From assembly GCA_900546415.1 (NCBI GenBank), contig URCY01000002.1:605-64604 (forward strand): a stretch of DNA of 64,000 bases, in the 5' to 3' direction. Of this stretch, positions 11,106 through 40,351 are shown one piece after another. A program made the translations under genes and the position numbers. A model generated the notes under the pieces. The model searched no databases. It was given only the letters and a program-made list of their open reading frames with translations, and was not told where the DNA came from. Every line of letters begins with the position of its first letter. Positions within the stretch are counted from its first letter, which is position 1. Origin of the DNA: an uncultured Eubacteriales bacterium. GTDB lineage: Bacteria > Bacillota > Clostridia > Oscillospirales > Oscillospiraceae.

Positions 11106-11141
11106 GCCTCCGCTGAACCGATCGATCCGTCATAAAAATGA

Positions 11142-11177
11142 GCCGATGCAGAACCAGACTTCTGCATCGGCTTTTTA
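11142..11177 (+). terminator. Rho-independent terminator
   Basis: gccgatgcagaa...ttctgcatcggc followed by ttttta. Confidence 0.65.
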
Positions 11178-11228
11178 TAATGGGGAGGGGCGCACTGCAA
11201 AAATGCAGCGCGCTCCATTTATGACTGG

Positions 11229-14200
11229 TTACTTGGTGAAGCTTTCCGCGAAACGCATCAGAAGCGTCGCGACCTGCGCGCGAGTGGCGTTGCCCTCCGG
11301 GTCAAGCACGACGCCCGCGCCGTTGTCGGTGCCCTTGATGAGCTTGGCGGAGACGGCCCAAGCCATTGCGTCCTCGGCGTATGCCTTGACGGAGCCCGCA
11401 TCGGAGAAGCTTGCCAGATCGGCGCGGCCGGAGACGTCATAGCCCCTCTGCCCGGCATAGCGGAACAGAATGGCCGTGAGCTGCTCGCGGGTGACGTCGG
11501 CATCCGGCTCGAAGGTCGTTGCGCTCGTGCCGCGCACGATGTCGTGCTCATAGGCCCATGCGAGCGCGTCGCGGTAATAGCCCTTTGCATCGATGTCGGT
11601 GAAGGGGACAGCCGCGGAGGAGGCAGGCTCACATGCCAGACGCCACAGCACGGTGACGAGCATTGCGCGGTTCATCGCGGTTTCCGGCTCGAAGGTAGTC
11701 TCACTCGTGCCGCGGAACAGGTCGTGTGTCACGGCAAAGTCGATGCCTTCATGCGCCCAGTTGCCAACGGCGGGCATATCGGTGAACCTTGCGCCCGGAC
11801 AGTTGGCGGGGATGACCTCGCCCTGACCGATCACGACGCCGCAGACGGTGCAGACGAGATCGCCGGTGTAGCCGTTCTCGGTGCAGGTGGCGGGCTTTGC
11901 ATTCACAACCTCGGTGGTCGGATGCGTGCAGGCGGCAGCATGGATCACGGTGACGCTTGCAACCTTGCTGACAAGGCGCTTGCCGGCGGCGCTTTTCGCG
12001 TCGAACTGCTCCTGACTGACGCCGTAGGCGAAGCGGATGCTGCCGGTGTTCTTCGCAGTGGCGGCTACCTCCTCAAGCGCGCCCTTGCCGGTGCTCCAGC
12101 TCAGAGCAAGCGCGGCGGGAACCTCGGTCTTTCCGGCGTCGGTGATGTAGTACCGATTCGTCATGCTTTCGGCGTAGGTCAGCCTGCTGCTGAAGCCGTC
12201 GGCCGCTGCGGCCTGAAGCGTGTCGTTCTCGGAGAAGGTCAGACCGGCGTCGGTGAGCAGGCTGTCGATCGTGACATATTCGGTCGCGGCAAGAATGGTC
12301 TCTTCGCCGCCCTTCCAATACTGATAGCCGACGGTGCCGGTGGTCTTGAGCGCGGCCAGCTCGGAGGGCCTATAGGTCTTGACGACCTTGGCCTCGCCGC
12401 CCTCGGTCTGCTCATAGACGGTCAGGACGGCGCGCTCCGGATGCGTGACGGTCAGGGTCGCGACCTTGCTGGCAATGCGCTTGCCGGAGACGTTCTGGCT
12501 GTCATACTGTTCCTGCGTGATGCCATAGGCAAAGCGGAGATTGCCGGAGATGTAAGCGCCCTTGACGATGTCCTCGGGCGTGCCCGTGCCGGAGTTCCAA
12601 GAGATCAGGATCGCTGCGGGAACCTCCACGGCGCCCGTCTCGTTGATGTAATACTTCTTGGTCTTGCTGTCCTCATAGGTGAGGGTGGAGGTGAAATCGG
12701 CCTCTGCCGTGGAGGCGGTGACGGAATCGCCGGTGCCGAAGTCGATCCCGGCGTCAGCCAGCAGGCTGTCGATGGAGGTATAGAGGTTGGAGGCAACCGT
12801 GCCCTCGACCTTTGTCTGATGGTTCCAATATTGATAGCCGACGGTCTTGTTTTCGGCCAGCGCCTTCAGGTCGGACATGGTGTAGGTCTTGACGGTTGCA
12901 GCCGCCTCACCCTCGTACTGCTCCAGAACGGTCAGAACGACCGGCTCGGCGGGCTTTTCGTTGCCGTAGCGGAAGGTCGGAGTTGCACCGGCGCAGAGGT
13001 AGGCGATCGTGTAGCCGTCCTCGGTGATGGTCGCGCCGCCGCCGCCGCAGCCGCCGGATTCACCGGCCTGCGTCAGCCAGACCTTATAGACCGGATAGCC
13101 GGTGCTGTCGGCATCCTGTGCCTCGTACTTGGCAAACAGCTCTTTGTCGTTGAGGTCATAGGCAAAGACGTCGAACGGACTGCGCTGGAAGCGCTCCTCG
13201 GCCACGGCGCAGTCCACGACGAGCGCAGCGTTGGTGTCATAGAGGCAGACCGGAGCGGTCGCGGCGATGTTCTTGCCGAGATAGACATAGGTCAGCGCCT
13301 GGCAGGATTCAAACGTGCTTGCGGGAAGCTCCGTGATCTGAACCTCGTCCGGGAAGATGACCTTGGTCAGATTGCTCCAGTCCTGATAGAACACGCCGGT
13401 TCCCATTTCTTTCAGGCCCTTCGGCATGGTGACCTCACTCAGACCGACACAGAGACCGAAAGCTGCATTGCCGATGGACTCAATGCTGTCAACCAGCGTC
13501 AGATCGGTCAGAGCGCCGTCATAGAAGAACATATAGTCGCCGATTTTTTTGCAGCCGTCTGCAAAGGTGACCTTGGCGAGATTCGCGTTGTTGCAGAATG
13601 CGCCCGTGCCGATGGCCGACAGGGTTGCAGGGACGGTAAGTTCGGTCAGGTTATCGCAATAATAGAATGCGTAGCTTCCAATCGTCTCGACCTGATTCAG
13701 ATCCACGGACGGGAGACCGGTATGGCCGAAGCAGGAGCTTCCAACGGTTTTCAGAGAGGCGGGGAAAACAATCGCGCCGAGGTTTTCGCAGCTCCAGAAC
13801 ATATAGTCACTGAGCGCTTCCACGCCCTCGGAGATCGTGACAGAGGTCAGCTTCTTGCAGATGTCAAAGGCGCTGCTCCCAAAGGTGACGTTTGCGGGAA
13901 GCGTGACAGAGGTCAGATTGCTCTGACGGAATGCGAGACTGTCGATCCGCTTGAGCGTAGAGGGGAAGGAAACAGTGGAAAGCACACTCTTGCCGAGATA
14001 GGTCTGCATGAAGGCCTGCGAGGCAATGATTTCGACGCCTTCGGGAATGTCATAGTGCGTTTCAGGGCGTGCGCTCGGATAACGGATCAGCTTCTTGCCG
14101 TCCTTGGTGAACAGGACGCCGTCCACATCCTTGAAATTCGGATTCTCCGCATCGACATAGATGTATTGCAGAGCATCACAGCCGGCAAAAACGTTTTCGG

Positions 14201-16121
14201 TATAGGTGACAACCTGTGTATTTTCGCCCTCGCCGACGCTGGTCTGGACGTCCTTGCCCATTTTCTCAAGCGTGGCGGGGAGCTTGACAGCTTCGACCTT
14301 TTTGCAGCCGCTGAATGCATCAGAACCGATGGTTTGCAGCTTGGTATCAGAGAGATCAAGCTCCGTCACGCTGCGAAGACCCCAGCAGCCCATGGCAGAG
14401 ATGTATTCGAGCGAATCGGGGAAGGAAACGGCGGAGAAGTAGTAGTCGGACGACGAGCCGGTCATCTGATAGGAATAGATCGCGCTCGCGCCGATGCCGG
14501 TGACGGCAAAGGTCCATGTGCGGCCGACGACCTTGGCGGTGACGGACTCGGGAATGACAAGCGTCTGGGAAGCATCATTATAGCCGACGTATTTCAGCTC
14601 GACCTTGCCGGTCTTGGAGGCGTTGTCGAAGCTCGTGACGTGGAATTCCAGATACTTCGGGTTTTCGGAGGAAGCGGTCGTGCCGTCCACATAGACCTTG
14701 AAGTCCGGAATGGAGGCAACAACAGGCTCTTCGCCCCAAGTCGCAAGCGTGATGTCGCCCTTCTGTTCAACAGGGGCTGCGAGCATATCGCTCCATGTCT
14801 CCTGATAATCCTCGAGGCTCACGGCCGGAACATAGATCGTCAGACTGGAGCAGCCGTAGAAGGGATAGCGCGTGCTGTTGTAGACAGAGTAGGGGACAAC
14901 GCCGGGAGCGGATTCGCCCCGGAACGTCACGGAGGTCAGCCCCGTGCAGTTGCTGAACGCGATCGCGCCAACGGTATTGATCGTTTCGGGAAGTACGATC
15001 GCCGCAAGAGCGGTATCATCGGCAAACATCGAGCTTGAAAGTGCTTCCTGCTTAGCCGGGAGCGTGACCGCCGTCAGGTTGGGGTTTGCACCGAGGGCGG
15101 CAATCCCGAAGGTAACATTTTCGGCCTCAAAGACGATCTCCTTGAGCTGCCACGTTCTGGACATGTAACGGCCGACATAATAGAAGCCCTGCTTCTCGAC
15201 GGTCGTGACGGAAGCCGGAACGGTGATCTTCGTGATCTGCGAGACGGCCTCGGAATCGGTCTTGCCGTAGTAGCTGCCGTTGCCGCAGAACGCGCCCTCT
15301 GCAACACCGACGACGTCGTAGGTCTTGCCGTCGACGGTATAGGCGCTCGGGAGGGTGATCTCGCCGCCGAAGCCAAAATAACCGGTGATCCAGGCCTTGC
15401 CCTCGCGCAGCTCGAACTTATAGAACTCCTGCGAGCTGGGATCGACCTTCGCGCCGCAGACGCAAACGCCCTTTTCATAGGTGTGTGCCTCGTTGGTGAC
15501 GGTATAGTCGCAACCGGCATCGGTGCAGACGGCGCTGTGCGTGCCGTCGCCGTTATCCGTGTAGCTCAGGTTATGGCTGGGCGCTTCGGGATAAGCAGGG
15601 TCGGGCAGCTCGTCTGCAATATCGGCTGAGACACTGACCGCACCGTCTGCCGCCGTTTCAAAATCATCGGCATAGAGGCTCTTGCAGTGAATGATCAGCT
15701 CGCTGTCGGAAATCGCCCTGTCAAAAATCGAGTTTGCAAGAGATTCGGCAAAGTTTGCCGGGACGGCACCGTAAAAGTAGACGTTGGTCAGCGAATACAT
15801 ATAATCAAATACGTAATCGCCGTAAGTCGTGACGGTGCTCGGGATCACAAGGCTTTCGACAGCCGTATTCGAAGCGCCGATGCACATGTCATCCAGCTTT
15901 GTGACCGGCGTGCCATTGATTTTGGCGGGGATCACGACGTCAACGGCGCTGCCGAGGTATTCGGTGATGACACCGTTGGAGAATTTGAAGTCCTCTGCCG
16001 GATTCGGCTCCGGAGTCTTGGATGCGGCATCAGCGGCGAAGGCGGGCAGGACAAGCCCTGTCATCATCGACAGACACAGCAGCAGAACCAGCAGCCGACG
16101 AAGGGGTGTTTTCAGGTTCAT
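11229..16121 (-). CDS. Giant S-layer-homology cell-surface protein (1630 aa): signal peptide, BspA-type leucine-rich repeats, two tandem ~150-aa repeat domains, Cys-rich module, three C-terminal SLH domains
   Basis: N-terminal signal peptide MNLKTPLRRLLVLLLCLSMMTGLVLPAFA. LRR_5-like repeats. Repeated LTV(L/Y)EQ(Y/T)EG...FAYG(I/V)(T/S)QEQ(Y/F)D blocks. Three C-terminal F(T/S)D...(W/Y)A...L..G...FEP...TRA/EQ SLH motifs. Confidence 0.85.
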   Translation of the reverse strand: MNLKTPLRRLLVLLLCLSMMTGLVLPAFAADAASKTPEPNPAEDFKFSNGVITEYLGSAVDVVIPAKINGTPVTKLDDMCIGASNTAVESLVIPSTVTTYGDYVFDYMYSLTNVYFYGAVPANFAESLANSIFDRAISDSELIIHCKSLYADDFETAADGAVSVSADIADELPDPAYPEAPSHNLSYTDNGDGTHSAVCTDAGCDYTVTNEAHTYEKGVCVCGAKVDPSSQEFYKFELREGKAWITGYFGFGGEITLPSAYTVDGKTYDVVGVAEGAFCGNGSYYGKTDSEAVSQITKITVPASVTTVEKQGFYYVGRYMSRTWQLKEIVFEAENVTFGIAALGANPNLTAVTLPAKQEALSSSMFADDTALAAIVLPETINTVGAIAFSNCTGLTSVTFRGESAPGVVPYSVYNSTRYPFYGCSSLTIYVPAVSLEDYQETWSDMLAAPVEQKGDITLATWGEEPVVASIPDFKVYVDGTTASSENPKYLEFHVTSFDNASKTGKVELKYVGYNDASQTLVIPESVTAKVVGRTWTFAVTGIGASAIYSYQMTGSSSDYYFSAVSFPDSLEYISAMGCWGLRSVTELDLSDTKLQTIGSDAFSGCKKVEAVKLPATLEKMGKDVQTSVGEGENTQVVTYTENVFAGCDALQYIYVDAENPNFKDVDGVLFTKDGKKLIRYPSARPETHYDIPEGVEIIASQAFMQTYLGKSVLSTVSFPSTLKRIDSLAFRQSNLTSVTLPANVTFGSSAFDICKKLTSVTISEGVEALSDYMFWSCENLGAIVFPASLKTVGSSCFGHTGLPSVDLNQVETIGSYAFYYCDNLTELTVPATLSAIGTGAFCNNANLAKVTFADGCKKIGDYMFFYDGALTDLTLVDSIESIGNAAFGLCVGLSEVTMPKGLKEMGTGVFYQDWSNLTKVIFPDEVQITELPASTFESCQALTYVYLGKNIAATAPVCLYDTNAALVVDCAVAEERFQRSPFDVFAYDLNDKELFAKYEAQDADSTGYPVYKVWLTQAGESGGCGGGGATITEDGYTIAYLCAGATPTFRYGNEKPAEPVVLTVLEQYEGEAAATVKTYTMSDLKALAENKTVGYQYWNHQTKVEGTVASNLYTSIDSLLADAGIDFGTGDSVTASTAEADFTSTLTYEDSKTKKYYINETGAVEVPAAILISWNSGTGTPEDIVKGAYISGNLRFAYGITQEQYDSQNVSGKRIASKVATLTVTHPERAVLTVYEQTEGGEAKVVKTYRPSELAALKTTGTVGYQYWKGGEETILAATEYVTIDSLLTDAGLTFSENDTLQAAAADGFSSRLTYAESMTNRYYITDAGKTEVPAALALSWSTGKGALEEVAATAKNTGSIRFAYGVSQEQFDAKSAAGKRLVSKVASVTVIHAAACTHPTTEVVNAKPATCTENGYTGDLVCTVCGVVIGQGEVIPANCPGARFTDMPAVGNWAHEGIDFAVTHDLFRGTSETTFEPETAMNRAMLVTVLWRLACEPASSAAVPFTDIDAKGYYRDALAWAYEHDIVRGTSATTFEPDADVTREQLTAILFRYAGQRGYDVSGRADLASFSDAGSVKAYAEDAMAWAVSAKLIKGTDNGAGVVLDPEGNATRAQVATLLMRFAESFTK

Positions 16122-16196: not shown

Positions 16197-16225
16197 ATTC
16201 TAGAAGAAGAATAACGCAATGTCAA
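16197..16225 (-). promoter_or_regulatory. Sigma-A promoter for the giant LRR/SLH gene (minus strand)
   Basis: On the minus strand: TTGACA, 17-nt spacer, TAGAAT. Confidence 0.6.
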
Positions 16226-16296
16226 GACCGACTGGAAAAATTCGGCAATATCGAACAGAAACACGCTGTTAATTCCGTGAAAAATAACCGCAGGGC

Positions 16297-16325
16297 TTGC
16301 AATTTTCCCGTCTTCGGTGTATGAT
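16297..16325 (+). promoter_or_regulatory. Sigma-A promoter for the five-gene SBP / ExbBD-like / SLH operon
   Basis: TTGCAA, 17-nt spacer, TATGAT. A near-palindromic atgataagcat overlaps the -10 element. Confidence 0.55.
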
Positions 16326-16408
16326 AAGCATAACGAAATCGGATCGGAGCCGTTTCTTTTTTTGAAGACGGTTATTCTCGTTTGTGTATCACGGGTTCAG
16401 GAGTGCTT

Positions 16409-17491
16409 ATGAAACGAATTCTTGCTATTGTAATAGGTATCGCGTTGTGCCTGTCTCTGACGGCCTGCGGCAGCGGCTATGACCCGCTGGAGGGCGTCGC
16501 GACGCAGCAGTTTACGGACAGCGCCGGGCGGGATGTTATGCTCCCGCAGGAGATCACGCGCGTCGCTGCCAGCGGCTCGACGGCGCAGATGATTTTGATG
16601 ACGATCGCGCCGGAGCTTCTGATCGGCCTTGCCAGCAGTCCGAGCGCGGCGCAGATGCCGTATTTTCCGGAGAATATGTGGTATCTGCCGACCTTCGGCC
16701 AGTTTTACGGCAGCAAGGCAAACCTGAACATGGAGGCGCTGATCGACGCGCAGCCGCAGATCATCATTGACCTCGGCGACGCGAAGGAGAGCGTCGTCGA
16801 CGACATGAACGGCATTCAGAAGCAGACCGGCATCCCGACGGTCTTCATCGAGGCGACGATCGAGACCATGCCGCAGGCCTACCGCACGCTCGGCAAGCTT
16901 CTGAACCGGGAGGAGCAGGGCGAAAGGCTCGCGGAATTCGTCGAACGGACGCTCGATATGGCAGAGGAAAATTCGGCAAGGCTTTCGGAATCGGAGCGCA
17001 AAACCGTAATGTTCGGAACCGGCTCGACAGGCCTTGCCTGCAATGCGGCCGGGTCGGTGCAGGCCGACGTGATCGAGCTGGTCGGCGCGGTCAACGCGAT
17101 TGAGTCCGGCGAGATCAGCAACCGCAACGGCGGCACGACGGTGAACCTCGAGCAGGTCTATGTCTATGACCCGCAGGTCATCATTCTCTCGGCCGGCGGG
17201 CCGTATGAGACGCTGCAGGACGGCGAGTGGTCCGGGCTGACGGCGGTTCGGAGCGGCAATTATTATGAGATCCCGAACCTGCCCTATGACTGGATGTCCT
17301 CACCGCCGTCGGTCAACCGCGTGCTCGGTGTCTGGTGGCTGGGCAACCTGCTCTATCCGGAGCTTTATGACTATGATATGATCGCCGTGGCGCAGGAATT
17401 TTACAGCCTGTTCTGGCATTACGAGCTGTCCGAGGACGAGGCGCGCACGCTGATGGCGCATTCGACCTATCGCGGGGAGGCGACGCCATGA
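16409..17491 (+). CDS. ABC transporter substrate-binding lipoprotein, FecB/BtuF-type (iron-siderophore / heme / corrinoid class)
   Basis: Lipoprotein signal MKRILAIVIGIALCLSLTACGSG; class III periplasmic-binding fold features. CAGGAG ribosome-binding site. Stop overlaps the next gene's start (ATGA). Confidence 0.8.
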   Translation: MKRILAIVIGIALCLSLTACGSGYDPLEGVATQQFTDSAGRDVMLPQEITRVAASGSTAQMILMTIAPELLIGLASSPSAAQMPYFPENMWYLPTFGQFYGSKANLNMEALIDAQPQIIIDLGDAKESVVDDMNGIQKQTGIPTVFIEATIETMPQAYRTLGKLLNREEQGERLAEFVERTLDMAEENSARLSESERKTVMFGTGSTGLACNAAGSVQADVIELVGAVNAIESGEISNRNGGTTVNLEQVYVYDPQVIILSAGGPYETLQDGEWSGLTAVRSGNYYEIPNLPYDWMSSPPSVNRVLGVWWLGNLLYPELYDYDMIAVAQEFYSLFWHYELSEDEARTLMAHSTYRGEATP

Positions 17492-19083
17492 GACGCCGTG
17501 TTCCCGCGCTCCTGACGGCGCTTCTGCTGCTTCTGAGCCTTGCCGCGCCGGGTCTCGCGGCCGGGCAGGTGACCGACACGCTCACGGTCAAGGTCGGCTA
17601 CTTCGGCATGGAAACGGAGCAATATGCGGAGGTCGGCACGTACCATTGGTCGGAGCTTTCGCAGAATCTGCCGATTGTCGAGAACGCGTATTCCTTCTTC
17701 CGCAGCGGGACGGACGGCGTTTACCGCACGGTGATCGATTCTGCGCGCGGCTTTTCCATCAGCGACCTGATGGACTATGTGAACATCAACATACAGGATA
17801 TTCAGTCGATCCAGTTCTATACGAAGGATCAGGAGATCGGCTATTTCACCTCGTTCACCAACGCCGAGCTCTTCGAGACGCCGCGCTATTATTTCAACGA
17901 TCTTTCGTCTCACATTGAGCCGGTCTATAACGACGCGGGTGAGGTCGTGGAATTCAACGCCGATTCGGCGTGGGACGACTGCTGGGAGGTCGCGCCGATG
18001 CTGGCGCTCGAGGACAGCTGGGCAACCTACGAGCTGGGCACGGAGCACACCGCGCCGAACTACGAGAGCATGGGGACGGGCAACCGCTTCCGGCTGTTGT
18101 TCGGGCAGGCGTACCCGACGGAGGTGCGGACGAACCAGAGCGCGAAATACACGCACACCCTGTTCGTCACGCTCAACGGCACGCCGCCCGTGCCGGAGCT
18201 TCCGGAGCTGGACGGGACGATCGGGTCGCATACGATCCAGTTCGATATGTCGCTCAGCAACGGCACCCTGCGCGAGGCGCTCGCGCAGCTGCTGAACATC
18301 TCCTCGTCGGATTCCTCCGTTTTGGAGATCAAGAGCGTGACCGTCACGCCGAGCAGCGAATATGTCGATCTTGCGACGGTCACGGTGACCTATGAGGTGC
18401 ATAAGGAAGGGGCGGCGAGTCTGTCGATCGGGCTTGGCGGAGCGCCCGTGACGAGCAGCCCGACGATCACGACGCACGATCCGACGCCGACCGAGCCTGA
18501 CCCGCAGCCCACGCTGCCGGTCTTGCCGGACACGCCGACGCAGCCCGACAACGGCAATGGGCAGGGGAACGGCAGCGGCAACGATCAGAGCAACGGGAAC
18601 GGCAGCGGCAACGATCAGAGCAACGGGAACGGAAGCGGCAACGATCAGAGCAACGGGAACGGAAGCGGCAACGGGAACGGTTCGATCCCGACCCCGACAA
18701 CGCCCGCTCCGACGACCGCTCCGACCGAGGTGACCGAGGCGACCACCGAGCCGCCGACCGAGCTTGGCGTTCCGGACGGCTTGAATCCGGCCGACACCGC
18801 GCCCGTTCCGCTGCCCGAGCAGATGGTGCGTATGTACGCGCTGGACGATTCCGTTGCGCGGCAGCTGATGCAAAAGGGCGAACAGGCAGTGCAGCCGGAT
18901 GCGCAGAACGGCGGCGCGGCGGCACACGCGCCGACGGTCGCACCTGCGATCGAGGAGCGGGACGACCGTCTGACGCTGCTGCTGGTTGCGCTCGGCGCGA
19001 TCCTGACCGCCGCTGCGGGCGGCGCGGCAGCCTGCGCTTATTATCAAAAACAATTTCCACGAAAAGAAAGAGGTAAGGCATGA
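17488..19083 (+). CDS. Secreted, C-terminally membrane-anchored protein with an Asn/Gly/Gln-rich tandem repeat region and a Pro/Thr-rich linker
   Basis: Signal peptide MRRRVPALLTALLLLLSLAAPGLAAGQ. (NGSGNDQSNG) x3 repeats, PTTPAPTTAPTE linker, C-terminal hydrophobic segment plus KKR tail. Translationally coupled on both sides. Confidence 0.7.
   Translation: MRRRVPALLTALLLLLSLAAPGLAAGQVTDTLTVKVGYFGMETEQYAEVGTYHWSELSQNLPIVENAYSFFRSGTDGVYRTVIDSARGFSISDLMDYVNINIQDIQSIQFYTKDQEIGYFTSFTNAELFETPRYYFNDLSSHIEPVYNDAGEVVEFNADSAWDDCWEVAPMLALEDSWATYELGTEHTAPNYESMGTGNRFRLLFGQAYPTEVRTNQSAKYTHTLFVTLNGTPPVPELPELDGTIGSHTIQFDMSLSNGTLREALAQLLNISSSDSSVLEIKSVTVTPSSEYVDLATVTVTYEVHKEGAASLSIGLGGAPVTSSPTITTHDPTPTEPDPQPTLPVLPDTPTQPDNGNGQGNGSGNDQSNGNGSGNDQSNGNGSGNDQSNGNGSGNGNGSIPTPTTPAPTTAPTEVTEATTEPPTELGVPDGLNPADTAPVPLPEQMVRMYALDDSVARQLMQKGEQAVQPDAQNGGAAAHAPTVAPAIEERDDRLTLLLVALGAILTAAAGGAAACAYYQKQFPRKERGKA
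18571..18680 (+). repeat. In-frame 30-bp tandem repeat (about 3.6 copies) encoding GSGNDQSNGN
   Basis: ggcagcggcaacgatcagagcaacgggaac repeated at 18571, 18601 and 18631, with a partial fourth copy. Confidence 0.9.
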
Positions 19084-19700
19084 GTTCTGCATTTCACGAG
19101 ATTCTGCGCGCGGTCGCGTCGGCCATGGAGCTGCCGGTCGTGCTGCTGCTGGTGCTGCTGCTGGCCTTCGCGGTGTTCACCGTCGGCTGGCTGCTGGTCG
19201 AGTATTTTACAGAGCACCGCCATATGAAGTTCACGCTGCCGGTTCTGCTTGAGACGCTCCGCACAACGGACGACGTCTCGAAGACCTTGGAGCGCAGCCG
19301 CCTGAACCGTCGGCAGAGGGCGCTTTTGGCCGAGCTGGCCGCGCATCCGGAGTTGACGGCCGAGCTGCGCCGCTCTCTGGCGGACAATCTGCTCGAGCAT
19401 GAGCAGGCGCACTATGACCGGCTCATCAAGCTGACCGATCTTGCCGCGAAGCTCGCGCCGATGTTCGGCCTGCTTGGCACGCTCATCCCGCTCGGCCCCG
19501 GCATCATCGCTTTGGGACAGGGCGACACCTACACGCTGTCCGTCTCGCTTCTGACCGCGTTCGACACGACGATCGTCGGCCTGATCGCGGCGGCGGTCTG
19601 CATGGTCGTTTCGACCGTCCGCAAGCGCTGGTACGGCGCGTATATGTCCGATCTGGAGACGCTGGCGGACTGCCTCTGCGAGCGCGAGGCGGCAGCATGA
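19080..19700 (+). CDS. MotA/TolQ/ExbB-family proton-channel protein
   Basis: Three-TM topology: TM1, then a ~90-aa cytoplasmic loop, then TM2-TM3. Conserved motif APMFGLLGTLIPLGPGII. Start ATG overlaps the upstream stop (ATGA). Confidence 0.75.
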   Translation: MSSAFHEILRAVASAMELPVVLLLVLLLAFAVFTVGWLLVEYFTEHRHMKFTLPVLLETLRTTDDVSKTLERSRLNRRQRALLAELAAHPELTAELRRSLADNLLEHEQAHYDRLIKLTDLAAKLAPMFGLLGTLIPLGPGIIALGQGDTYTLSVSLLTAFDTTIVGLIAAAVCMVVSTVRKRWYGAYMSDLETLADCLCEREAAA

Positions 19701-20053
19701 GAAGGCAGAGAAATCGCCGCCGCTTCGAGGACGAGGGCGTCAATCCGATGAACTACATCTCCAACCTGTCCGACGCGATGCTGGTTCTGGCCGTCGGCAT
19801 GATGCTGGCGCTGATCGTCCATTGGAACGTGGACATCGGCTCTGGGACGAAGACAGGGCAGACGAGCGAGCCGACCTCGCAGACGCAGATCGACCGCGAC
19901 AACGCGCCGAGCTTCACGGACGACGATCTGAAGGAGACGGAGCAGCCGTCGGAGAGCGGCGAGCTGGAGAAGCTCGGCGAGGTCTACTATGACGCGGCAA
20001 CCGGAAAATACTACATCATTGAAAACTCGAACGGAACGGAGGGCGGACAGTGA
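19697..20053 (+). CDS. ExbD/TolR-like single-pass protein (possibly DUF2149-type) with a conserved transmembrane Asp
   Basis: N-terminal basic tail RRQRNRRRFEDE. TM segment LSDAMLVLAVGMMLALIV matches the ExbD DxxLVLL motif. Short atypical ~75-aa extracytoplasmic tail. ATGA overlap with the upstream gene. Confidence 0.6.
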   Translation: MRRQRNRRRFEDEGVNPMNYISNLSDAMLVLAVGMMLALIVHWNVDIGSGTKTGQTSEPTSQTQIDRDNAPSFTDDDLKETEQPSESGELEKLGEVYYDAATGKYYIIENSNGTEGGQ

Positions 20054-23000
20054 AACGTTTTTGGAGCATTCTGATCCTGCTTGCGCTGCTGGCGCAGGCC
20101 GGTTGTCTCGGCGCGTCGGCGTCCGGGCAGGTTACGGGCAAGCTGGAGCGGCGCGCAGGCTATGAGCTTGCGAGCGTGCGCTATGTCTTTGCCGACGGCA
20201 GCTACGGCTTTGCCGAGGTGCGCGAGACGGCCGACGGCTATGCCTATTCGTTTGCAGACCCCGGCACGGCGTATACGCTCGTGCCGGAGTATTTCTCCAC
20301 GACCGTCTGGGACGGCGCGGTGGATCTTTCCTGGTACGACGCAGAGCAGACCGAATTTTATATCAGCACACCGGCGCAGCTTGCCGGTCTGGCGGCGCTC
20401 GTCAACGGCCGCGTGGACGCAGACACGTCCGATTACCGCATCCGCGGCGACCGCAGCCAGCTCGTCAGCACCCGCGTGGACGATTTTCTGCTGATCGGCG
20501 CGGGCGGCGGCAACCTATACGGCACGGTCTATGTCGGCGATCAGGATCATGATTTTTCGGACAAAACGGTCTATCTGACGGCCGATCTCGATATGGGCGG
20601 CGAATGCAACTGGACGCCGATCGGCGGCAAATATCCCATGGACGCAGCCAACAGTGACTATGTGATCGAGGCCTTCTTCAACGGCACGCTTGACGGGCAG
20701 GGACATCGCATCACGAATCTGCACTGCGACCGCTACGCGGCGAAGGGCTATGCCTATTCGCAGGCGGTCGGACTCGTCGGCTACCTCGGCGAGCTTTATC
20801 AGGACGAGGCTGCGCCAAAGGCCGCTCCGGCCGTGCGCAATCTCTCCGTCAGCGGCGATGTTTACGGCCGCCGCATGGTCGGCGGTATCGTCGGCCGCAC
20901 GGGCAAGATCCCGACCGGCGTCTATCTGGAAAACTGCGCGAACCATGCGACCGTTCGCAACACGGACTCCAAGGGCATCGGCGGCATTGTCGGAACGGGC
21001 TGGAGCGCGGGAGCGATCGTGAACTGCTATAACACCGGCGTGATCTCCACGTCCTACGCCTGTCCGGCCGGCGGCATCGTCGGCAGCAACGGCGGTCTGG
21101 ATGTTTTCAACTGCTATAACGTCGGCACGATCGATTCCTCCGGCAACGCGCGCGGGCGCGGCATCGGCGGACATGACAGCGGCAGCTACACCGTTTCGGA
21201 CTGCTACTATCTCGACGGCTGCGACGACGACCCGGCCTCGAACGGCTGGTACGTCGGCACGGCGCAGAGCATTCGGGTCTTCGTTGAGCGCCGAAGCTCG
21301 GCCGCGATGCAGACGCAGGACTTGGTCGACGCGCTCAACCGCAACGGTGAGGCCTATGTCGGCACGGCGGGCGGCTATCCGCGTCTGGCCTGGGAGGCCG
21401 GAGCGCAGCGGCCGGACGCCTCCGTCCGCGTGGAGAAGCCGGAGGGCGGCGCGATTTCGGCAGACCGGACGGGAAGCGTTCCCGCCGGGACGGTTTTGAA
21501 GCTCTCCAACGCGCCCGAAACCGGCTGGACGCTCCGCAGCTATACGCTCAGCGGAAAGGAGCTGAGCGGCCGCTATGCGACCGTCACGGGCGAGAGCGTT
21601 CTGAGCGGACGTTTCGAGGCGCTTCAGGCGGGCGCGCTCTATATCGAGCAGCATCCGGCCTGCGAGCTGACCGTGACCAAAACCGGCACGGCGCTGCAAA
21701 ACGGCGCGCTCGTTCCGGTCGAAAATGCGCCGGTGCAGGACGGCGACGCGCTCTATGAGGGCGACGTGCTGACCGTGAAGGCCAAGCTGAACGCCGACGC
21801 GGCGCCGGACGATCTGAACTACGTTTACAGCGGCAGCTTCCGCTATTTCTTTGCCTATCAGGACGGCAGCGGCGAAAAGGCGACTGACACCGGCAGCTTT
21901 ACGGTCGGCTCGCAGATCACGGCCGCGCCGCTGAGCCTGCGCGTCGAGCCGTATACGACGCACAAGGTCTGGACGCAGCTAGCCGAGACCGATTGGTACA
22001 GCGACGGGCGCACGGAGTTCACGCTGACCACGGCGCGGCAGCTTGCGGGCTTGGCAAAGCTCGTCCGCGAGGGCAACCGATTCACCGGGAAGACCGTGAA
22101 GCTCGGCGCGGACATTTCCCTTGTGAACGACGACAAGACCTTTAACCGCAGCGTCCGCTGGTGGGACGGTATCGGCACGAATCAGAACCCATTTTCCGGC
22201 ACGTTTGATGGCGACGGCCACCAGATCACGCAGATGACGGCCGTCTCGTCGGGCAGCGGCGCAGCGCTTTTTGTTGCGGCGAAGTCCGCGACGATCCGGA
22301 ATGTCAGCGTTTATGGCACGGTCGAGGCAAACGGCAGCGCCGCCGGGATCGTTGCGTCGGCCTCCGACACTGTCGTGGAGCGGTGCGACAACCACGCCGA
22401 GATCCGCTCGACCAATGTGAATGCGGGCGGCATTGCCGCCGTGCTGGACGCGGGCAGCAGCCTGCTGAGCTGCACAAATCGCGGCACGGTGAATGGGACG
22501 GACGGCGTCGGCGGAGTGGCCGGCGTTGTGCAGGACGCGAACAGCAGCCTGACGGACTGCCTGAACTATGCCGCCGTCGGAGCAGACGGCGCCAGCATCG
22601 GCGCGGGCGGCGTGGTCGGCCGCATCGGCGGCGCGCTGCTCCGCTGCGCCAACTACGGCCCGGTTTCCGGCGCTTGCTGGTACATGGGCGGCGTTGCGGG
22701 CGTGGCCAAGACGCAGAACGCCTCGAGGCTGACCGATTGCTACAGCGTCGGCGACGTTTCCAACACCCATTCCTATTCCGCAGCCGGGACCGGCGGCCTG
22801 CTCGGCCACGGCGACTTCTGCACGCTCGAAACCTGCTTCTCCTATGCTGCGGTCGCGGCGCAGAGCGGAACGGCCGACGGCGCGATCGGCAAATATATGC
22901 GCCGCTCCACGAACAGCTGCAAAAATGTATGGATCTTGGGCGATGCAAGCGCGATCCCCGGCGTTTCCGGCCAAAGCACGGCAGGCTTTGCCTCGGAGGA

Positions 23001-23781
23001 TTTCTTGAATCAGCTCAATGCGGACCGCTGCTTCGTGCTGAAAAACGGAAAATATCCCGAATTTTCGTCGGTCTACGGCGAGACGGTCTGCGTGCACGCA
23101 CACACCGAGCTGGTGAACGTCCGGCAGGCTGTCTGCGGCACACCGGGCTACAGCGGCGATCTTGTCTGCACGGATTGCGGCGCAGTTTTGCGCACGGGCG
23201 AGGCGACCACGGCGACCTGCCCCGGCGCAAGCTTTGCGGATATGCCCTCGGTCGGCAACTGGGCGCACGCCGGGATCGACTACGCCGTGACGCACGGCCT
23301 GTTCAAGGGCGTCAGCCCGACGAGCTTCGAGCCGGACGGCTCGATGACCCGCGCCATGCTGGTCACGGTGCTCTGGCGCGTCGAGGGGCAGCCGGATCCG
23401 TCCGAGCAGAGCCGATTCTCCGATGTGGAGCGCGGGAGCTGGTATGACAAGGCCGTGCTCTGGGCAGCGGAATGCAAGGTGGTCAACGGCGTCTCTGCCA
23501 CACGCTTTGAGCCGGATTCCAACGTGACGCGTGAGCAGATCGCGGTGATCCTCTATCGCTACGCGCGCTACAAGGGCTTGGATACGCGCGAGCGCGGAGA
23601 TCTTTCTGCCTTCCCGGATGTGGCCGCCGTCAGCAGCTATGCGACAACGGCGTTCTCCTGGGCAAACGGCGCGAGGCTCATCAACGGCACGTCGAACGGC
23701 TCGGTCGCCCTGCTCGACCCGCAGGGCGACGCGACGCGCGCGCAGGTAGCGGCCATTCTGATGCGCTTTTTGAATCGTTAA
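20050..23781 (+). CDS. Giant S-layer-homology cell-surface protein (1243 aa): signal peptide, two copies of a GLUG-motif-like GG(I/V)(V/A)G repeat module, Cys-rich module, three C-terminal SLH domains
   Basis: Signal peptide MKRFWSILILLALLAQAGCLGASASG. Recurring GGIVG, GGVAG and GGVVG every ~35–45 aa in two homologous blocks. C-terminal CxxxGYSGDLVCTDCG...CPG followed by 3 SLH motifs. GTG start with GGAGGG ribosome-binding site; GTGA overlap with the upstream gene. Confidence 0.8.
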   Translation: MKRFWSILILLALLAQAGCLGASASGQVTGKLERRAGYELASVRYVFADGSYGFAEVRETADGYAYSFADPGTAYTLVPEYFSTTVWDGAVDLSWYDAEQTEFYISTPAQLAGLAALVNGRVDADTSDYRIRGDRSQLVSTRVDDFLLIGAGGGNLYGTVYVGDQDHDFSDKTVYLTADLDMGGECNWTPIGGKYPMDAANSDYVIEAFFNGTLDGQGHRITNLHCDRYAAKGYAYSQAVGLVGYLGELYQDEAAPKAAPAVRNLSVSGDVYGRRMVGGIVGRTGKIPTGVYLENCANHATVRNTDSKGIGGIVGTGWSAGAIVNCYNTGVISTSYACPAGGIVGSNGGLDVFNCYNVGTIDSSGNARGRGIGGHDSGSYTVSDCYYLDGCDDDPASNGWYVGTAQSIRVFVERRSSAAMQTQDLVDALNRNGEAYVGTAGGYPRLAWEAGAQRPDASVRVEKPEGGAISADRTGSVPAGTVLKLSNAPETGWTLRSYTLSGKELSGRYATVTGESVLSGRFEALQAGALYIEQHPACELTVTKTGTALQNGALVPVENAPVQDGDALYEGDVLTVKAKLNADAAPDDLNYVYSGSFRYFFAYQDGSGEKATDTGSFTVGSQITAAPLSLRVEPYTTHKVWTQLAETDWYSDGRTEFTLTTARQLAGLAKLVREGNRFTGKTVKLGADISLVNDDKTFNRSVRWWDGIGTNQNPFSGTFDGDGHQITQMTAVSSGSGAALFVAAKSATIRNVSVYGTVEANGSAAGIVASASDTVVERCDNHAEIRSTNVNAGGIAAVLDAGSSLLSCTNRGTVNGTDGVGGVAGVVQDANSSLTDCLNYAAVGADGASIGAGGVVGRIGGALLRCANYGPVSGACWYMGGVAGVAKTQNASRLTDCYSVGDVSNTHSYSAAGTGGLLGHGDFCTLETCFSYAAVAAQSGTADGAIGKYMRRSTNSCKNVWILGDASAIPGVSGQSTAGFASEDFLNQLNADRCFVLKNGKYPEFSSVYGETVCVHAHTELVNVRQAVCGTPGYSGDLVCTDCGAVLRTGEATTATCPGASFADMPSVGNWAHAGIDYAVTHGLFKGVSPTSFEPDGSMTRAMLVTVLWRVEGQPDPSEQSRFSDVERGSWYDKAVLWAAECKVVNGVSATRFEPDSNVTREQIAVILYRYARYKGLDTRERGDLSAFPDVAAVSSYATTAFSWANGARLINGTSNGSVALLDPQGDATRAQVAAILMRFLNR

Positions 23782-23785
23782 ACAG

Positions 23786-23820
23786 AAAAACGCCTCTCCG
23801 ATCTTGGAGAGGCGTTTTTC
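23786..23820. terminator. Bidirectional rho-independent terminator between convergent operons
   Basis: Perfect hairpin aaaaacgcctctcc gatc ttggagaggcgttttt. Confidence 0.8.
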
Positions 23821-23821
23821 A

Positions 23822-24586
23822 TTAATCCAACGGGATCAGAACCGTATGGCCGTCGATGCGCCGCACCTCGGCGCGGATGCCGTAGAGCCGCGCAAGCAGC
23901 TCCGGCGTGAGCGTGTCGGCGGTCGCGCCGTCGGCGATCACGCGGCCGTTCTGAAGCGCCAGAACCTGTGTGGCATAGTGCAGCGCGTGCTCCGGGTTAT
24001 GCGTCGAGAGCAGGATCGTATAGCCGCCGTCGGCCAGCGCCCGCACCTGCTGCATCACGCGGCGCTGGTTGCCGTAGTCGAGATTTGCAGTCGGCTCGTC
24101 CATGATCAGAACGCGCGCGTCCTGCACCAGTGCCCGCGCGATCAGCGCGAGCTGGCGCTCGCCGCCGGAGAGCTGCGCGATGCCGCGCTGCGCTAAGTCT
24201 GAAATACCAAGCAGCTCCAGCGCGCGGGCGCAGCGTTCGCGTTCCGTTCGGGAGGGCGCCTGCAGCGCCGAGAGCGCACCCGTCGTGCCCATGAGCACCG
24301 CATCCTCAACGGTATAGTTGAACACCGGCGTGCTCGACTGCGGAATATAAGCGGCCAGATTGGCCAGCCTGCGCCGGTCGATCGCCGCCGTGTCCTCGCC
24401 GCAGAGGCGTATCGTCCCCGCAGACGGCTTCAGCAAGCGCAGAATGCAGCGAAAAAGGGTGCTTTTGCCCGCGCCGTTCGGGCCAAGCACGGCCACGAGC
24501 GCACCCTGCCGGACGGAGAAGCTGACGTCATGCAGCGTCGGAACGACGCCATAGGAGAACGAGACGTTTTCCAGCTCAATCTGCAT
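23822..24586 (-). CDS. Iron-siderophore/heme/B12-type ABC transporter ATP-binding protein (FecE/FepC-like)
   Basis: Walker A GPNGAGKST, signature LSGGERQLALIARAL, Walker B LIMDEPTANLD. GGAGG ribosome-binding site 8 nt before ATG 24586. Confidence 0.85.
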   Translation of the reverse strand: MQIELENVSFSYGVVPTLHDVSFSVRQGALVAVLGPNGAGKSTLFRCILRLLKPSAGTIRLCGEDTAAIDRRRLANLAAYIPQSSTPVFNYTVEDAVLMGTTGALSALQAPSRTERERCARALELLGISDLAQRGIAQLSGGERQLALIARALVQDARVLIMDEPTANLDYGNQRRVMQQVRALADGGYTILLSTHNPEHALHYATQVLALQNGRVIADGATADTLTPELLARLYGIRAEVRRIDGHTVLIPLD

Positions 24587-25586
24587 GTCTGCCACCTCCG
24601 CTCAGGATCAGATAGAGGAACAGCGGCGCGCCGATGAAGGCGGTGAGGATGCCGAGCGGGATCTCGTTGGTCGTGACGAGGCGCGCGGCGTCATCCACGA
24701 CCAGCAAAAACGCCGCGCCGAGCATGGCCGACGCCGGAATGAGGCGGCGGTAATCGTAGCCGAACAGCATCCGGCAGATATGCGGAATAATCAGGCCGAC
24801 CCATCCGATCATGCCCGAGACGGAGACGCTGGCGGCCGTGAGCAGCGTCGCGCAGATCACGACGATCAGGCGCAGCAGCGTGGTGTTCACACCCATGGCG
24901 CGCGCCTCGTCCTCTCCGACCGTGAGCAGGTTCAGCCGCCAGCGCAGAAGCAGCAGCGGCAGCATCCCGACCGCGAAGGGGATCGACAAAAACAGCAGGT
25001 CGCGCTGCTTGATCGACGTGAGGCTGCCGAGCAGCCAATAGGTGATCGCCGGGAGCTTTTGATCGGTGTCGGCGACGAGCTTGATGAAGGACGTCCCGGC
25101 GGAAAACAGCGAGGAGATCATCATGCCGGCCAGAATCATGGCCGTTGTCGGGTTTGTGCGGCTGACGCGGCTGATGAGATAGGCCACGAAGACCGCCGCC
25201 AGACCGAAGCAGAACGAGGAGGCCGAGATGCCGAAATAGCTTGCGCCGAGCAGGATGGCAAGCGCCGCGCCGAAGCCCGCGCCGGTCGAGGCGCCGAGGA
25301 TGTCGGGCGAGACGAGCGGATTGCGGAACATGCCCTGATAGCAGATGCCCGCGACGGAGAGTGCCGCGCCGACCAGCATCGCCGCGCCGACGCGCGGCAG
25401 ACGGATCTCAAAAAAGACCTGCTGCGCGCCCTTCGGCACGTCGCCGCGCCCGGCAATGAGGTGCGCCAGCTCGATAAGGCTCAGATGAAAGCGGCCGGAA
25501 ACGATTGAGAACAGCACTGCGGCAAGCAGCACTGCGCCGAGGCAGAAAAATCGCGCGGTATAGGATTTTTGTTTCTTGAGCTGCAT
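24576..25586 (-). CDS. FecCD-family ABC transporter permease
   Basis: 336 aa, ~9 TM segments, typical FecCD motifs. AGGAG ribosome-binding site. Overlaps the ATPase start. Confidence 0.85.
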   Translation of the reverse strand: MQLKKQKSYTARFFCLGAVLLAAVLFSIVSGRFHLSLIELAHLIAGRGDVPKGAQQVFFEIRLPRVGAAMLVGAALSVAGICYQGMFRNPLVSPDILGASTGAGFGAALAILLGASYFGISASSFCFGLAAVFVAYLISRVSRTNPTTAMILAGMMISSLFSAGTSFIKLVADTDQKLPAITYWLLGSLTSIKQRDLLFLSIPFAVGMLPLLLLRWRLNLLTVGEDEARAMGVNTTLLRLIVVICATLLTAASVSVSGMIGWVGLIIPHICRMLFGYDYRRLIPASAMLGAAFLLVVDDAARLVTTNEIPLGILTAFIGAPLFLYLILSGGGRHAD

Positions 25587-25638
25587 GACGACTCCTGCCC
25601 TTCAAGCGTAATTCTTATATGAGATAACGCCAAGCACT

Positions 25639-25667
25639 ATTCTAGCAAAATTCGACCGTTCTGTCAA
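25639..25667 (-). promoter_or_regulatory. Sigma-A promoter of the fecCD-fecE operon (minus strand)
   Basis: On the minus strand: TTGACA, 17-nt spacer, TAGAAT. Confidence 0.6.
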
Positions 25668-39349: not shown

Positions 39350-40234
39350 TTACGCGTCCGTCTGCTCCAAAAGCTCCGAAAAGAGCGGGCGCGCCTCCGC
39401 AAGCGGCATCGGCGTCAGCGGAAGGCGCAGCTCGTTTTTGCAGAGGCCGCGCAGCGCCAGCGCCGCCTTGACCGGGATCGGATTGACGCGGCAGAAAAGC
39501 GCCTCGATCAGCGGCAGAAGCGCCAATTGCAGATAGGCGGCCTCGTCTCGGTCGCCCCGCTGCGCCGCGTGCACCATGGCAGCGGTCTGCCCGGGCAAAA
39601 GGTTCGAGAGCACCGAGATCACGCCGTCCGCGCCGAGAGAGAGCATCGGGACGGTCTGATCGTCGTTGCCGCTCCAGACGGAAAACGCCTCGCCGCAGAG
39701 CGCCTTGACCTTCGCGGCCTGCGAAATGCTTCCGGACGCCTCCTTCAGCCCTGCGATACGCGGATGCGCGCTGAGGCGGCGCGCCGTCTCCGGCAGCAGA
39801 TTGACGCCCGTGCGGCCCGGCACGTTGTAAAGGATCAGCGGCAGCGCCGTCGCGTCTGCAATGGCCGTGTAATGCACGGCAAGGCCGTCCTGCGTGCATT
39901 TATTATAGTACGGCGTCACGGCCAGGATTGCGTCCGCGCCGCAGTCGGACGCAAGGTGCGCCAGCCGGACAGACGCGGCTGTGTCGTTTGTCCCGACCCC
40001 CGCGATCAGGACGGCGCGGCTTCTGACATAATCCGCGCAATGCCGCCAGAGCGCGGATTTTTCCTCGGCGGAAAGGGTGCTGGCCTCGCCTGTCGTCCCT
40101 GCCAGAACGAGCGCGGGAATTTTTGCCGCGAGCTGACGCTCCAACAGGCCGTCGAGTGCGCTCCAATCGATCCTTCCGCCGGAAAACGGCGTGACCAGTG
40201 CGGTCGCAACGCCGGAAAATACGGGCTGCTTCAA
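39350..40234 (-). CDS. dapA: 4-hydroxy-tetrahydrodipicolinate synthase; predicted TTG start
   Basis: [17 protein letters not shown] and GLKEASG motifs. GGAGGTG ribosome-binding site 7 nt before the TTG. Confidence 0.7.
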
Positions 40235-40313
40235 GCTGCAACACCTCCGCACTATTCTATGCCGGATCAGGGCGCAAGGTTCCTGCAAATCCATAAAAAC
40301 TTGCCGACATTGC

Positions 40314-40342
40314 TTGCATCTTCCGGACAAATACGCTATAAT
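40314..40342 (+). promoter_or_regulatory. Sigma-A promoter of queA-tgt; the transcript would be nearly leaderless for ATG 40352
   Basis: TTGCAT, 17-nt spacer, TATAAT ending 10 nt before the ATG. Confidence 0.55.
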
Positions 40343-40351
40343 AAGCTTTGT

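Follow-up and report, generated by a model that had tools for sequence, protein, structure and literature searches.

A monoderm gene cluster combining a putative ExbB-like/DUF2149 motor, an ABC importer and wall-anchored proteins: a candidate molybdenum/tungsten cofactor relay

The window analysed here is a stretch of 64,000 nucleotides (nt) from an uncultured Eubacteriales bacterium (contig URCY01000002.1, positions 605 to 64,604 of the forward strand) whose nearest named relatives are Oscillospiraceae. It carries an operon of five plus-strand genes (16409-23781 in window coordinates) encoding a lipoprotein substrate-binding protein (SBP), a 531-aa protein referred to as the U protein, an ExbB-like membrane protein, a small DUF2149 protein and a 1243-aa wall-anchored protein. 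The permease and ATPase genes of an ABC importer lie convergently behind this operon, and the gene of a second giant surface protein with leucine-rich repeats (LRR) is transcribed divergently from it. On balance, and with modest confidence, we favour the reading that this locus encodes a proton-motor-assisted relay for the import of a molybdo- or tungsto-pterin cofactor or of a precursor thereof, a reading in which we infer both the cargo and the role of the motor. As such, the cluster is probably an undescribed motor-assisted cofactor-scavenging machine of monoderm anaerobes.

The ExbB-like/DUF2149 pair and the conservation of its module

An initial annotation of the window had proposed a TonB-less pair resembling ExbB and ExbD, the latter with a transmembrane aspartate, and this proposal is borne out by the Pfam matches of both genes (MotA_ExbB and DUF2149; Table 1) and by the invariance of the aspartate. 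A profile of the ExbB-like family aligns over its full length with E. coli ExbB (5sv0; E 5.8e-7), MotA and TolQ giving marginal matches only, and the GLLGT motif as well as the Thr residues of the third transmembrane helix are invariant throughout the family. The DUF2149 partner has a single N-terminal transmembrane helix with invariant Asn23 and Asp26 (alignment of 36 homologues), followed by a variable spacer and an invariant C-terminal hairpin motif (G-x-V-Y-x-D-x-x-T-G-x-Y-Y). No match to the Pfam ExbD model was obtained for this protein, which places it outside the ExbD/TolR family by that measure, and the DUF2149 profile matches the transmembrane segment of ExbD only marginally (E 2.2). 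In its architecture, DUF2149 is therefore analogous to ExbD, and the two may be distantly related. A further profile match, to designed 'Cake' propeller proteins, runs through the C-terminal hairpin motif and was discarded as a motif coincidence. Judged from sequence, the pair bears the hallmarks of a proton-driven stator of the ExbB/ExbD type. Contrary to what had first been supposed, it is not wholly unprecedented, as the same combination of MotA_ExbB and DUF2149 constitutes HmuU/HmuV of the hmu heme operon in Bacteroidota (PMC10434189, PMC11681262), where its role is still open (PMC12094164, PMC12583661); in methanogens, DUF2149 is linked to TolQ-like genes, again with open function (PMC9425974). 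Neither TonB nor a TonB-dependent receptor was found among the 28 of about 55 window genes scanned with Pfam, nor in two large open reading frames (ORFs) that match unrelated solved structures, and for these genes the original statement that the window lacks both holds.

The module is widespread. Scanning one genome per species, it was found to recur in at least 549 places; individual loci are denoted here by L numbers. Hosts among the best 80 include Oscillospiraceae, Anaerovoracaceae, Peptococcaceae, Thermacetogenium, Lachnospiraceae and Mogibacterium as well as Coriobacteriia, e.g. Eggerthellaceae and Senegalimassilia; every named host is a monoderm member of Bacillota or Actinomycetota, the exceptions being three bins labelled Bacteroidaceae or Hallerella. 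The lineages named in the scan are almost all monoderm and, hence, without an outer membrane. The three bins (L048, L049 and L069, assigned to a Bacteroidaceae bacterium or Hallerella sp.) bear diderm labels yet Firmicute-like loci, with a CWB2 giant protein in L048 and U-domain and small-lipoprotein genes in L049, and are probably mis-binned contigs. Relatives with ExbB-like proteins 65-70% identical to that of the window place the module in two unrelated chromosomal contexts, in both of which seven co-directional genes encode the SBP, a protein of ~470 aa, the ExbB-like protein, DUF2149, FecCD, the ABC ATPase and an SLH protein of ~1260 aa, with FecCD inside the operon and directly 3' of DUF2149. 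Since the seven genes are co-directional in these relatives, the window importer, which had been described as a split Fec-type system, rather reflects a local inversion.

For 75 species loci, custom composition-weighted gene calls were scored with profiles; the ExbB-like gene itself was missed in a few of them, and the resulting shares are lower bounds, many contigs ending within the locus. DUF2149 directly follows the ExbB-like gene in 83% of these loci and a homologue of the U protein directly precedes it in 71%, while an SBP is encoded nearby in 57% and a protein of at least 800 aa in 64%, homologues of the 1243-aa protein (BIG-like) being present near the ExbB-like gene in 38 of the 75. 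The linkage of ExbBD-like pairs to SLH proteins and FecBCD-type importers, as put forward initially, is thus recurrent and conserved across relatives. The wall anchor of the giants differs among loci (SLH, CWB2 or dockerin) and, therefore, the link appears functional rather than accidental, with attachment and not one particular domain being what matters. In some loci, e.g. L035 and L078, the operon contains no ABC importer. Proteins of 1100-1400 aa adjoining the ExbB-like gene in Actinomycetota were considered as CobN/HmuS candidates and rejected; they are CWB2-, dockerin- or DUF4430-bearing surface proteins.

U-domain proteins, cofactor riboswitches and the candidate cargo

The U protein, initially taken for a secreted Asn/Gly-repeat protein, is a type-I membrane protein with a folded ectodomain and a C-terminal transmembrane helix. 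It starts with a Sec signal and ends in a basic tail; in between, the AlphaFold2 model shows the confidently predicted U-domain (residues 31-230), a domain of Ig-like type (246-328), a linker with Pro/Thr and Asn-Gly stretches that is disordered (331-449) and the transmembrane helix (494-522). All homologues share this one layout of Sec signal, large ectodomain, variable low-complexity linker, C-terminal transmembrane helix and basic tail. The Asn/Gly part of the window linker (residues ~350-400, nt ~18535-18690) consists of near-perfect GNGSGNDQSN repeats; homologues of 85-95% identity measure 498-519 aa compared with 531 aa in the window, which suggests that the number of repeats may vary within the species. 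No match to the U protein was obtained in Pfam, NCBIfam or PDB sequences, and its family counts only 529 representatives in 1.84 billion clusters.

The clue to its possible function lies in the fold. The U-domain is sulfite-oxidase-like, i.e. it has the fold of the SUOX-type Moco (molybdenum cofactor) domain, and its nearest folds are sulfite oxidases. For family comparisons a profile was built on residues 26-238, a profile of residues 1-335 having drifted through the Ig-like domain. Against the Pfam model Oxidored_molyb (PF00174) the window U protein itself gives no match, and its tie to that family is only indirect, via lipoproteins of ~165 aa that are encoded after DUF2149 in 39% of loci: all three that were scanned match Oxidored_molyb (E 2.8e-11 to 2.4e-6), and their family is related to the U-domain family at profile level (90%, E 1.5e-6). 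The invariant Cys of these small lipoproteins was considered as a Mo ligand and rejected, HMMER alignments to SoxC and PruR placing it about nine residues upstream. Two tandem copies of the U-domain were additionally detected in the divergently encoded LRR/SLH giant; hhalign comparison of these repeats with the U-domain family of the 531-aa protein gave a probability of 99.1% (E 8.7e-19, 166 columns), a single-sequence comparison being weak (E 0.0024). With the U-domain present on both a wall giant and a membrane protein, one putative ligand-binding fold is therefore displayed at the wall and at the membrane.

None of 76 U proteins and small lipoproteins carries a Tat motif, all having Sec or lipoprotein signals. 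Export of a cofactor-loaded folded protein needs the Tat pathway. Hence, these proteins cannot be exported pre-loaded with Moco. This bears on a very improbable alternative, in which the U proteins and small Oxidored_molyb lipoproteins are true extracytoplasmic molybdoenzymes, similar to MsrP or sulfite dehydrogenase and marked by the riboswitch as Moco users, and motor and importer serve their redox function. Such a function would be in line with the Oxidored_molyb matches of the three lipoproteins, with the sulfite oxidase folds and with the fact that Moco riboswitches also precede genes of Moco-using enzymes (PMC2408646), but it conflicts with the absence of Tat signals and of a Cys at the Mo-ligand position, and the U-domains are of PruR size and lack the dimerisation domain. 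Moreover, the terminator platforms of the riboswitches described below fit an OFF switch, and the parallel clades of B12 type have binding domains in place of enzymes.

The cargo assignment draws on regulation in related loci. Rfam scans covered 45 loci, with Moco riboswitches found in five, cobalamin riboswitches in three and neither in 37. The Moco hits (RF01055, 59-72 bits versus a gathering score of 36) lie directly upstream of the operon and on its strand in L009, L011, L028, L035 and L045, and all five are followed by intrinsic terminators. The L011 aptamer has a P3 stem, a feature diagnostic of the Moco type of this riboswitch (PMC2408646), and both L009 and L011 belong to the ExbB subclade of the window. 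A covariance model built from the five riboswitches revealed no further clear copy in 1.39 Mb and one marginal hit in L023 (E 0.05); a riboswitch scan of ten further loci found nothing. A lysine riboswitch in L045 (2763-2937) precedes a separate ABC transporter cluster located just upstream of the Moco-riboswitch operon.

Rfam detected no riboswitch in the window, which gave no RF01055 hit at the gathering score or at E <= 10, and none with the covariance model. In the leader alignment, L011 (3225-3505) and L009 (3190-3445) have a full aptamer and terminator between a shared promoter and the start region, L004 (7310-7505) keeps a half-deleted aptamer, and the leaders of the window (16290-16412) and L007 retain only the 3' terminator arm and the T-run, aptamer and 5' arm being missing. 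The window promoter can be aligned with the one located before the Moco riboswitch of these relatives. Consequently, the window leader looks like the deletion remnant of a Moco riboswitch, with stepwise loss within one clade. With the riboswitch apparently lost in the window lineage, Moco probably does not repress this operon any more.

Genes related to molybdenum and tungsten enzymes are found around the U-type loci. An AOR-family gene (AFOR_N/AFOR_C; 4007-5611, 534 aa and thus unusually short) abuts FecCD in L021, genes of the same size occupy the same position in L025 and L029, and each of the three has XdhC no more than ~10 nt after the giant gene. XdhC also occurs beside the locus in L001-3, L015 and L017, an FmdE-family gene is the last of the L028 operon, and 150 sampled neighbour proteins yielded four XdhC and three MobB matches. 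The XdhC-like gene of L021 (16046-17104; likewise in L025 and L029) encodes its two domains in swapped order and is followed by a P-type ATPase with HMA domains.

Cobalamin riboswitches, by comparison, lie directly upstream in ExbB clades devoid of a U protein, namely in L036 (3716-3885), L078 (4693-4892) and L084, the latter with tandem copies at 8907-9113, 9394-9604 and 12600-12828; none was found in U-type loci among the 45 scanned. DUF4430, a transcobalamin-type B12 domain (PMC4350170), is present on SLH proteins in L084 and also on L078 proteins. B12 is the likely cargo of these U-less sister clades. Downstream in L084, a standalone DUF4430 protein, a CbiQ-type component of an energy-coupling factor (ECF) transporter and an ABC ATPase are encoded. 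The cobalamin-riboswitch operon of L036 contains, after DUF2149, a 148-aa protein (11066-11512) with a weak NEAT match below cut-off (E 4e-4), at the place where Moco-type loci have their small Oxidored_molyb lipoprotein. In the cobalamin-type operon of L078, a MoxR-type AAA+ ATPase and a DUF58 protein (12469-14410) follow the DUF4430 protein. Pairs of this kind are often partners of vWA proteins in the insertion of metal cofactors. That the ExbB-like/DUF2149 pair occurs in monoderms and is controlled there by Moco and B12 riboswitches shows that it needs neither TonB nor an outer-membrane receptor.

Iron, siderophores, heme or B12, the cargoes proposed at first, are probably wrong for the present subtype, whose U-type loci combine Moco riboswitches with XdhC, AOR and FmdE genes. 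An iron chelate, heme or corrinoid system akin to Fec, Fhu, Isd or Btu, in which the motor strips the ligand from surface receptors, is accordingly regarded as unlikely. Several observations would nevertheless suit it: the Peripla_BP_2, FecCD and ATPase proteins match heme, B12 and siderophore models, HmuU/HmuV homologues reside in a heme operon (PMC10434189), the sister clades are B12-regulated, and B. cereus IlsA is an iron-acquisition protein composed of LRR, NEAT and SLH (PMC2777315). Furthermore, Shr-like hemoglobin-interacting domains (HID) occur in two of 33 giants located beside ExbB-like/DUF2149 pairs (E 1.8e-16), and a heme-type variant of the platform may thus exist in monoderms. 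Yet the NCBIfam matches all remain far below the cut-offs, i.e. those of the SBP to ferrichrome, BtuF and IsdE models, as well as the best models of the ATPase (heme and corrinoid ATPases) and of the permease (BtuC), so that no match above cut-off was obtained at the equivalog level of NCBIfam for the importer substrate. The nearest solved structures of the SBP, 4pag and 4ovk, are both without a named ligand. Likewise, no NEAT, DUF4430 or HID domain was found by Pfam in the window proteins, and the three cobalamin riboswitches are confined to U-less clades.

Quite improbable, too, is that molybdate or tungstate bound to a secreted chelator ('molybdophore') is imported. Peripla_BP_2/FecCD importers typically carry metal chelates, and the Moco riboswitch upstream in five loci would then control uptake in the same manner as with modABC, Mo/W uptake genes being classical targets of this riboswitch (PMC2408646). 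However, a chelate cargo leaves unexplained the pterin-binding-type fold in three proteins of the system and the co-operonic XdhC, a handler of finished cofactor, and no chelator-biosynthesis genes were encountered among the 150 neighbours sampled. Least probable among the alternatives considered is a motor unrelated to transport, which would energise secretion, anchoring, turnover or movement of the SLH, CWB2 or dockerin giants with the importer as a bystander. GldLM and Tol motors of the same superfamily drive non-transport processes, and both the frequency of large wall proteins near the pair and the importer-free operons of L035 and L078 agree with such a role. On the other hand, the ExbB-like genes of L078 and L084 are directly preceded by a cofactor riboswitch, as are the U-ExbB-DUF2149 genes of L035, the giants carry ligand-binding modules matching the riboswitch type, and an SBP is present in more than half of the loci despite truncated contigs. 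No specific support was obtained for energised remodelling of SLH proteins, another role suggested at the outset.

Gene organisation of the window

Gene anatomy was derived from an ORF listing combined with a Pfam scan. Adjoining pairs of the five operon genes overlap by 4 nt, the junctions being ATGA in three cases and GTGA in one, so that the five coupled genes of the initial annotation agree with the ORF listing in their coordinates (Table 1). Its other structural claims were confirmed as well: a promoter-like site is present at 16297, the FecCD and ATPase genes converge on the operon from behind a perfect terminator, and the divergent LRR giant bears three SLH domains. Four promoter-like sites were seen in the region by pattern scan versus 1.6 expected. 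The terminator hairpin, AAAAACGCCTCTCC-GATCTT-GGAGAGGCGTTTTT, is flanked by an A-run and a T-run and separates the convergent operons; it is absent from the pattern-scan listing and known from reading the sequence. Inspection by eye alone suggested that the -10 region (TGATAAGCATAAC) might resemble a Fur box, an idea that was not retained.

Table 1 Features of the locus in the window
Feature	Position	Strand	Evidence
LRR/SLH giant, 1630 aa	11229-16121	-	Pfam LRR_5 E 2e-81, SLH x3
Second U-domain copy, LRR/SLH giant residues ~1221-1390	11952-12461	-	U-domain hidden Markov model (HMM) match 1233-1330, E 1.7e-6
First U-domain copy, LRR/SLH giant residues ~1051-1215	12477-12971	-	U-domain HMM match 1063-1163, E 2.4e-7
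Promoter-like site of divergent LRR/SLH gene, TTGACA-17-TAGAAT	16197-16225	-	11/12 matches
Promoter-like site of five-gene operon, TTGCAA-17-TATGAT	16297-16325	+	9/12 matches
Short operon leader, apparent Moco riboswitch remnant	16326-16408	+	Leader alignment
Lipoprotein SBP, Peripla_BP_2	16409-17491 (ORF from 16382)	+	Pfam E 2.4e-19
U protein, 531 aa	17488-19083	+	ORF listing
ExbB-like protein, 206 aa, three transmembrane helices	19080-19700	+	Pfam MotA_ExbB E 1.2e-11, above cut-off
DUF2149 protein, 118 aa	19697-20053	+	Pfam DUF2149 E 4.8e-9, above cut-off
Wall-anchored protein, 1243 aa	20050-23781	+	Pfam SLH x3
Bidirectional intrinsic terminator, perfect 14-bp hairpin	23786-23819	both	Read from sequence
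ABC importer ATPase	23822-24595	-	Pfam ABC_tran E 3.2e-34
FecCD/BtuC-type permease	24576-25586	-	Pfam FecCD E 2.5e-88
Promoter-like site of FecCD-ABC pair, TTGACA-17-TAGAAT with TG	25639-25667	-	11/12 matches

With Peripla_BP_2, FecCD and ABC ATPase, which are co-operonic in relatives, the components of a type II ABC importer are complete; the lipobox of the SBP reads LTAC. Both giants start with a signal peptide. In the 1630-aa protein, LRR_5 repeats are followed by the two tandem U-domains, a Cys-rich module and three SLH domains, whereas the 1243-aa protein contains two GLUG-type beta-helix modules parted by beta-sandwich domains, then a Cys-rich module and three SLH domains. The AlphaFold2 model of residues 1-1050 of the latter (predicted local distance difference test score, pLDDT, 90.5) comprises two beta-helix modules, and Foldseek retrieved 3n6z, a putative IgA1 protease with a GLUG beta-helix (E 5.9e-8), as well as the N-terminal domain of S. 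pneumoniae IgA1 protease (E 6e-6); no peptidase domain was found in the 1243-aa protein. Its initial designation as a GLUG-repeat protein does not hold for the window protein by score (17.2 bits versus a cut-off of 20.5) but does for its homologues, GLUG being present in 13 of 33 related giants, and the fold agrees with it. The Cys-rich module preceding the SLH domains (residues ~1395-1450 of the protein encoded at 11229-16121 and ~1005-1050 of that at 20050-23781) follows the pattern C-x-H...VN...A-x-C-x3-GY-x-GD-x2-C-x2-CG...CPG-x-F-x-DMP and has no Pfam match.

Composition is uniform across the window (~60% GC), and the genes flanking the locus are housekeeping genes, including the LCP-family gene noted initially, which Pfam corroborates. 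Two further ORFs have composite appearance. One, of 631 aa (39527-41422, plus strand), matches QueA (S-adenosylmethionine:tRNA ribosyltransferase-isomerase) over its C-terminal 340 residues (E 2.7e-133) and has an N-terminal extension of ~290 residues, for which an over-called start is possible. The other, of 815 aa (49349-51796, minus strand), is a FabF-type ketoacyl-ACP synthase over residues 1-400, its C-terminal half having no match in a PDB sequence search.

Proposed relay and its relation to known systems

In the proposed relay, the U-domains of the LRR/SLH giant would bind Moco, its tungsten counterpart (Tuco), molybdopterin or a precursor such as cyclic pyranopterin monophosphate (cPMP) at the wall, a possible source being foreign Moco-proteins retained by LRR or beta-helix parts. 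The U-domain of the 531-aa protein would take over the ligand from the wall giant and deliver it to the lipoprotein SBP, after which FecCD/ABC would import it at the expense of ATP. Powered by proton-motive force, the ExbB-like/DUF2149 motor would pull at a partner or turn against it, most likely the C-terminal helix or juxtamembrane region of the translationally coupled 531-aa protein, and the force could free a tightly held ligand outside the cell, where ATP cannot act. More generally, the cargo of a common platform might depend on swappable ligand modules, Mo/W-pterin being served by a sulfite-oxidase-like domain, B12 by DUF4430 and heme possibly by the Hmu proteins.

Several points weigh against this proposal. 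With respect to distribution, the Moco riboswitch is present in only five (possibly six) of ~80 species loci, and the window itself has neither the riboswitch nor a Moco gene among its 28 Pfam-scanned genes. Regarding the binding proteins, the U family has no invariant Cys in the alignment, the invariant Cys of the small lipoproteins is out of register with the Mo-ligating residue of SoxC, and the U-domain stays below every Pfam threshold. The three importer proteins are about as similar to heme systems as to B12 and siderophore systems, and the cargo may vary within the family, as the Shr-like domains of two giants indicate. The closest non-enzymatic relative, PruR, has small pterins as ligands and is considered too small to accommodate Moco (PMC13259868), and no experimental precedent for bacterial Moco uptake was found in the literature (PMC9026282).

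Among known machineries, the Ton system of diderm bacteria is one of the closest. Shared features are the three-helix subunit of ExbB type, aligning with the E. coli protein over its full length, the small single-pass partner with an invariant transmembrane Asp, and the link to uptake of a scarce, bulky cofactor via a BtuCD-type importer, in relatives likewise under riboswitch control. In the present system, however, the partner is DUF2149 instead of Pfam ExbD and has a short extracellular tail with a conserved hairpin, and neither TonB nor a beta-barrel receptor was detected among the window genes checked, the operon included. The candidate force receiver has the opposite topology to TonB, with its N-terminus outside and a C-terminal anchor, and bears a ligand-binding-type domain itself, while the distal partners are SLH, CWB2 or dockerin giants and almost all hosts lack an outer membrane. 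The Hmu system shares the adjacent MotA_ExbB and DUF2149 pair within a cofactor-acquisition operon (PMC10434189, PMC11681262), but it comprises the TonB-dependent HmuR, the hemophore HmuY and the CobN-like dechelatase HmuS; none of these families was found by Pfam in the window operon or in the large neighbours of relatives that were scanned. Here, the partners are instead a type II ABC importer, an ectodomain protein of sulfite-oxidase fold and SLH giants, and the presumed cargo is a pterin and not heme.

A second parallel is provided by the Isd/NEAT systems and IlsA, in which a small ligand-binding domain is repeated on wall and membrane-proximal proteins feeding a Peripla_BP_2 plus FecCD importer; the LRR, binding-domain and SLH architecture of IlsA (PMC2777315) is mirrored by the divergent giant. 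The resemblance is confined to architecture. In contrast to Isd, the domain is of sulfite-oxidase-like and not of NEAT fold, anchoring occurs through SLH and not by sortase, and a proton motor is part of the operon, whereas Isd transfer is passive. PruR, in turn, offers the precedent of a Sec-exported sulfite-oxidase-type fold without the Mo-ligating Cys that acts as a binder and not as an enzyme (PMC11194511, PMC13259868). It is a soluble signalling protein regulating a diguanylate cyclase, whereas the U-domain resides on membrane- and wall-anchored proteins in a transport operon which, in relatives, is under a Moco riboswitch. Compared with BtuFCD-type importers, SBP, permease and ATPase are ordinary members by Pfam, but are embedded together with a proton motor, and in the window an inversion has taken the FecCD and ATPase genes out of the operon. 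In summary, the system would work like Ton joined to an Isd-type relay, but the defining parts of Ton (TonB, barrel receptor and Pfam ExbD) and of Isd (NEAT domain and sortase anchoring) were not found among the window genes checked.

An ExbB/DUF2149 pair in monoderms, a FecCD-type importer under a Moco riboswitch and the U-domain family were not found described in the literature. Most organisms are generally held not to take up Moco as a nutrient (PMC9026282), and no description of a bacterial importer was found. With rather less confidence than for the relay as such, we suggest tentatively that the cluster may represent the first bacterial Mo/W-cofactor uptake system and, at the same time, a general monoderm proton motor for cofactor scavenging without TonB or barrel. 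Moco cross-feeding in the microbiome would become testable with such a candidate importer, marked by a riboswitch, in abundant gut Clostridia. The occurrence of the HmuU/HmuV-type pair in monoderms, in addition, suggests that it generally serves to energise the handling of cofactors outside the cytoplasm. A functional hypothesis is gained for DUF2149 and a family of ~500 uncharacterised membrane proteins, and some of the giant surface proteins with SLH, GLUG and LRR in gut Firmicutes are covered by it as well.

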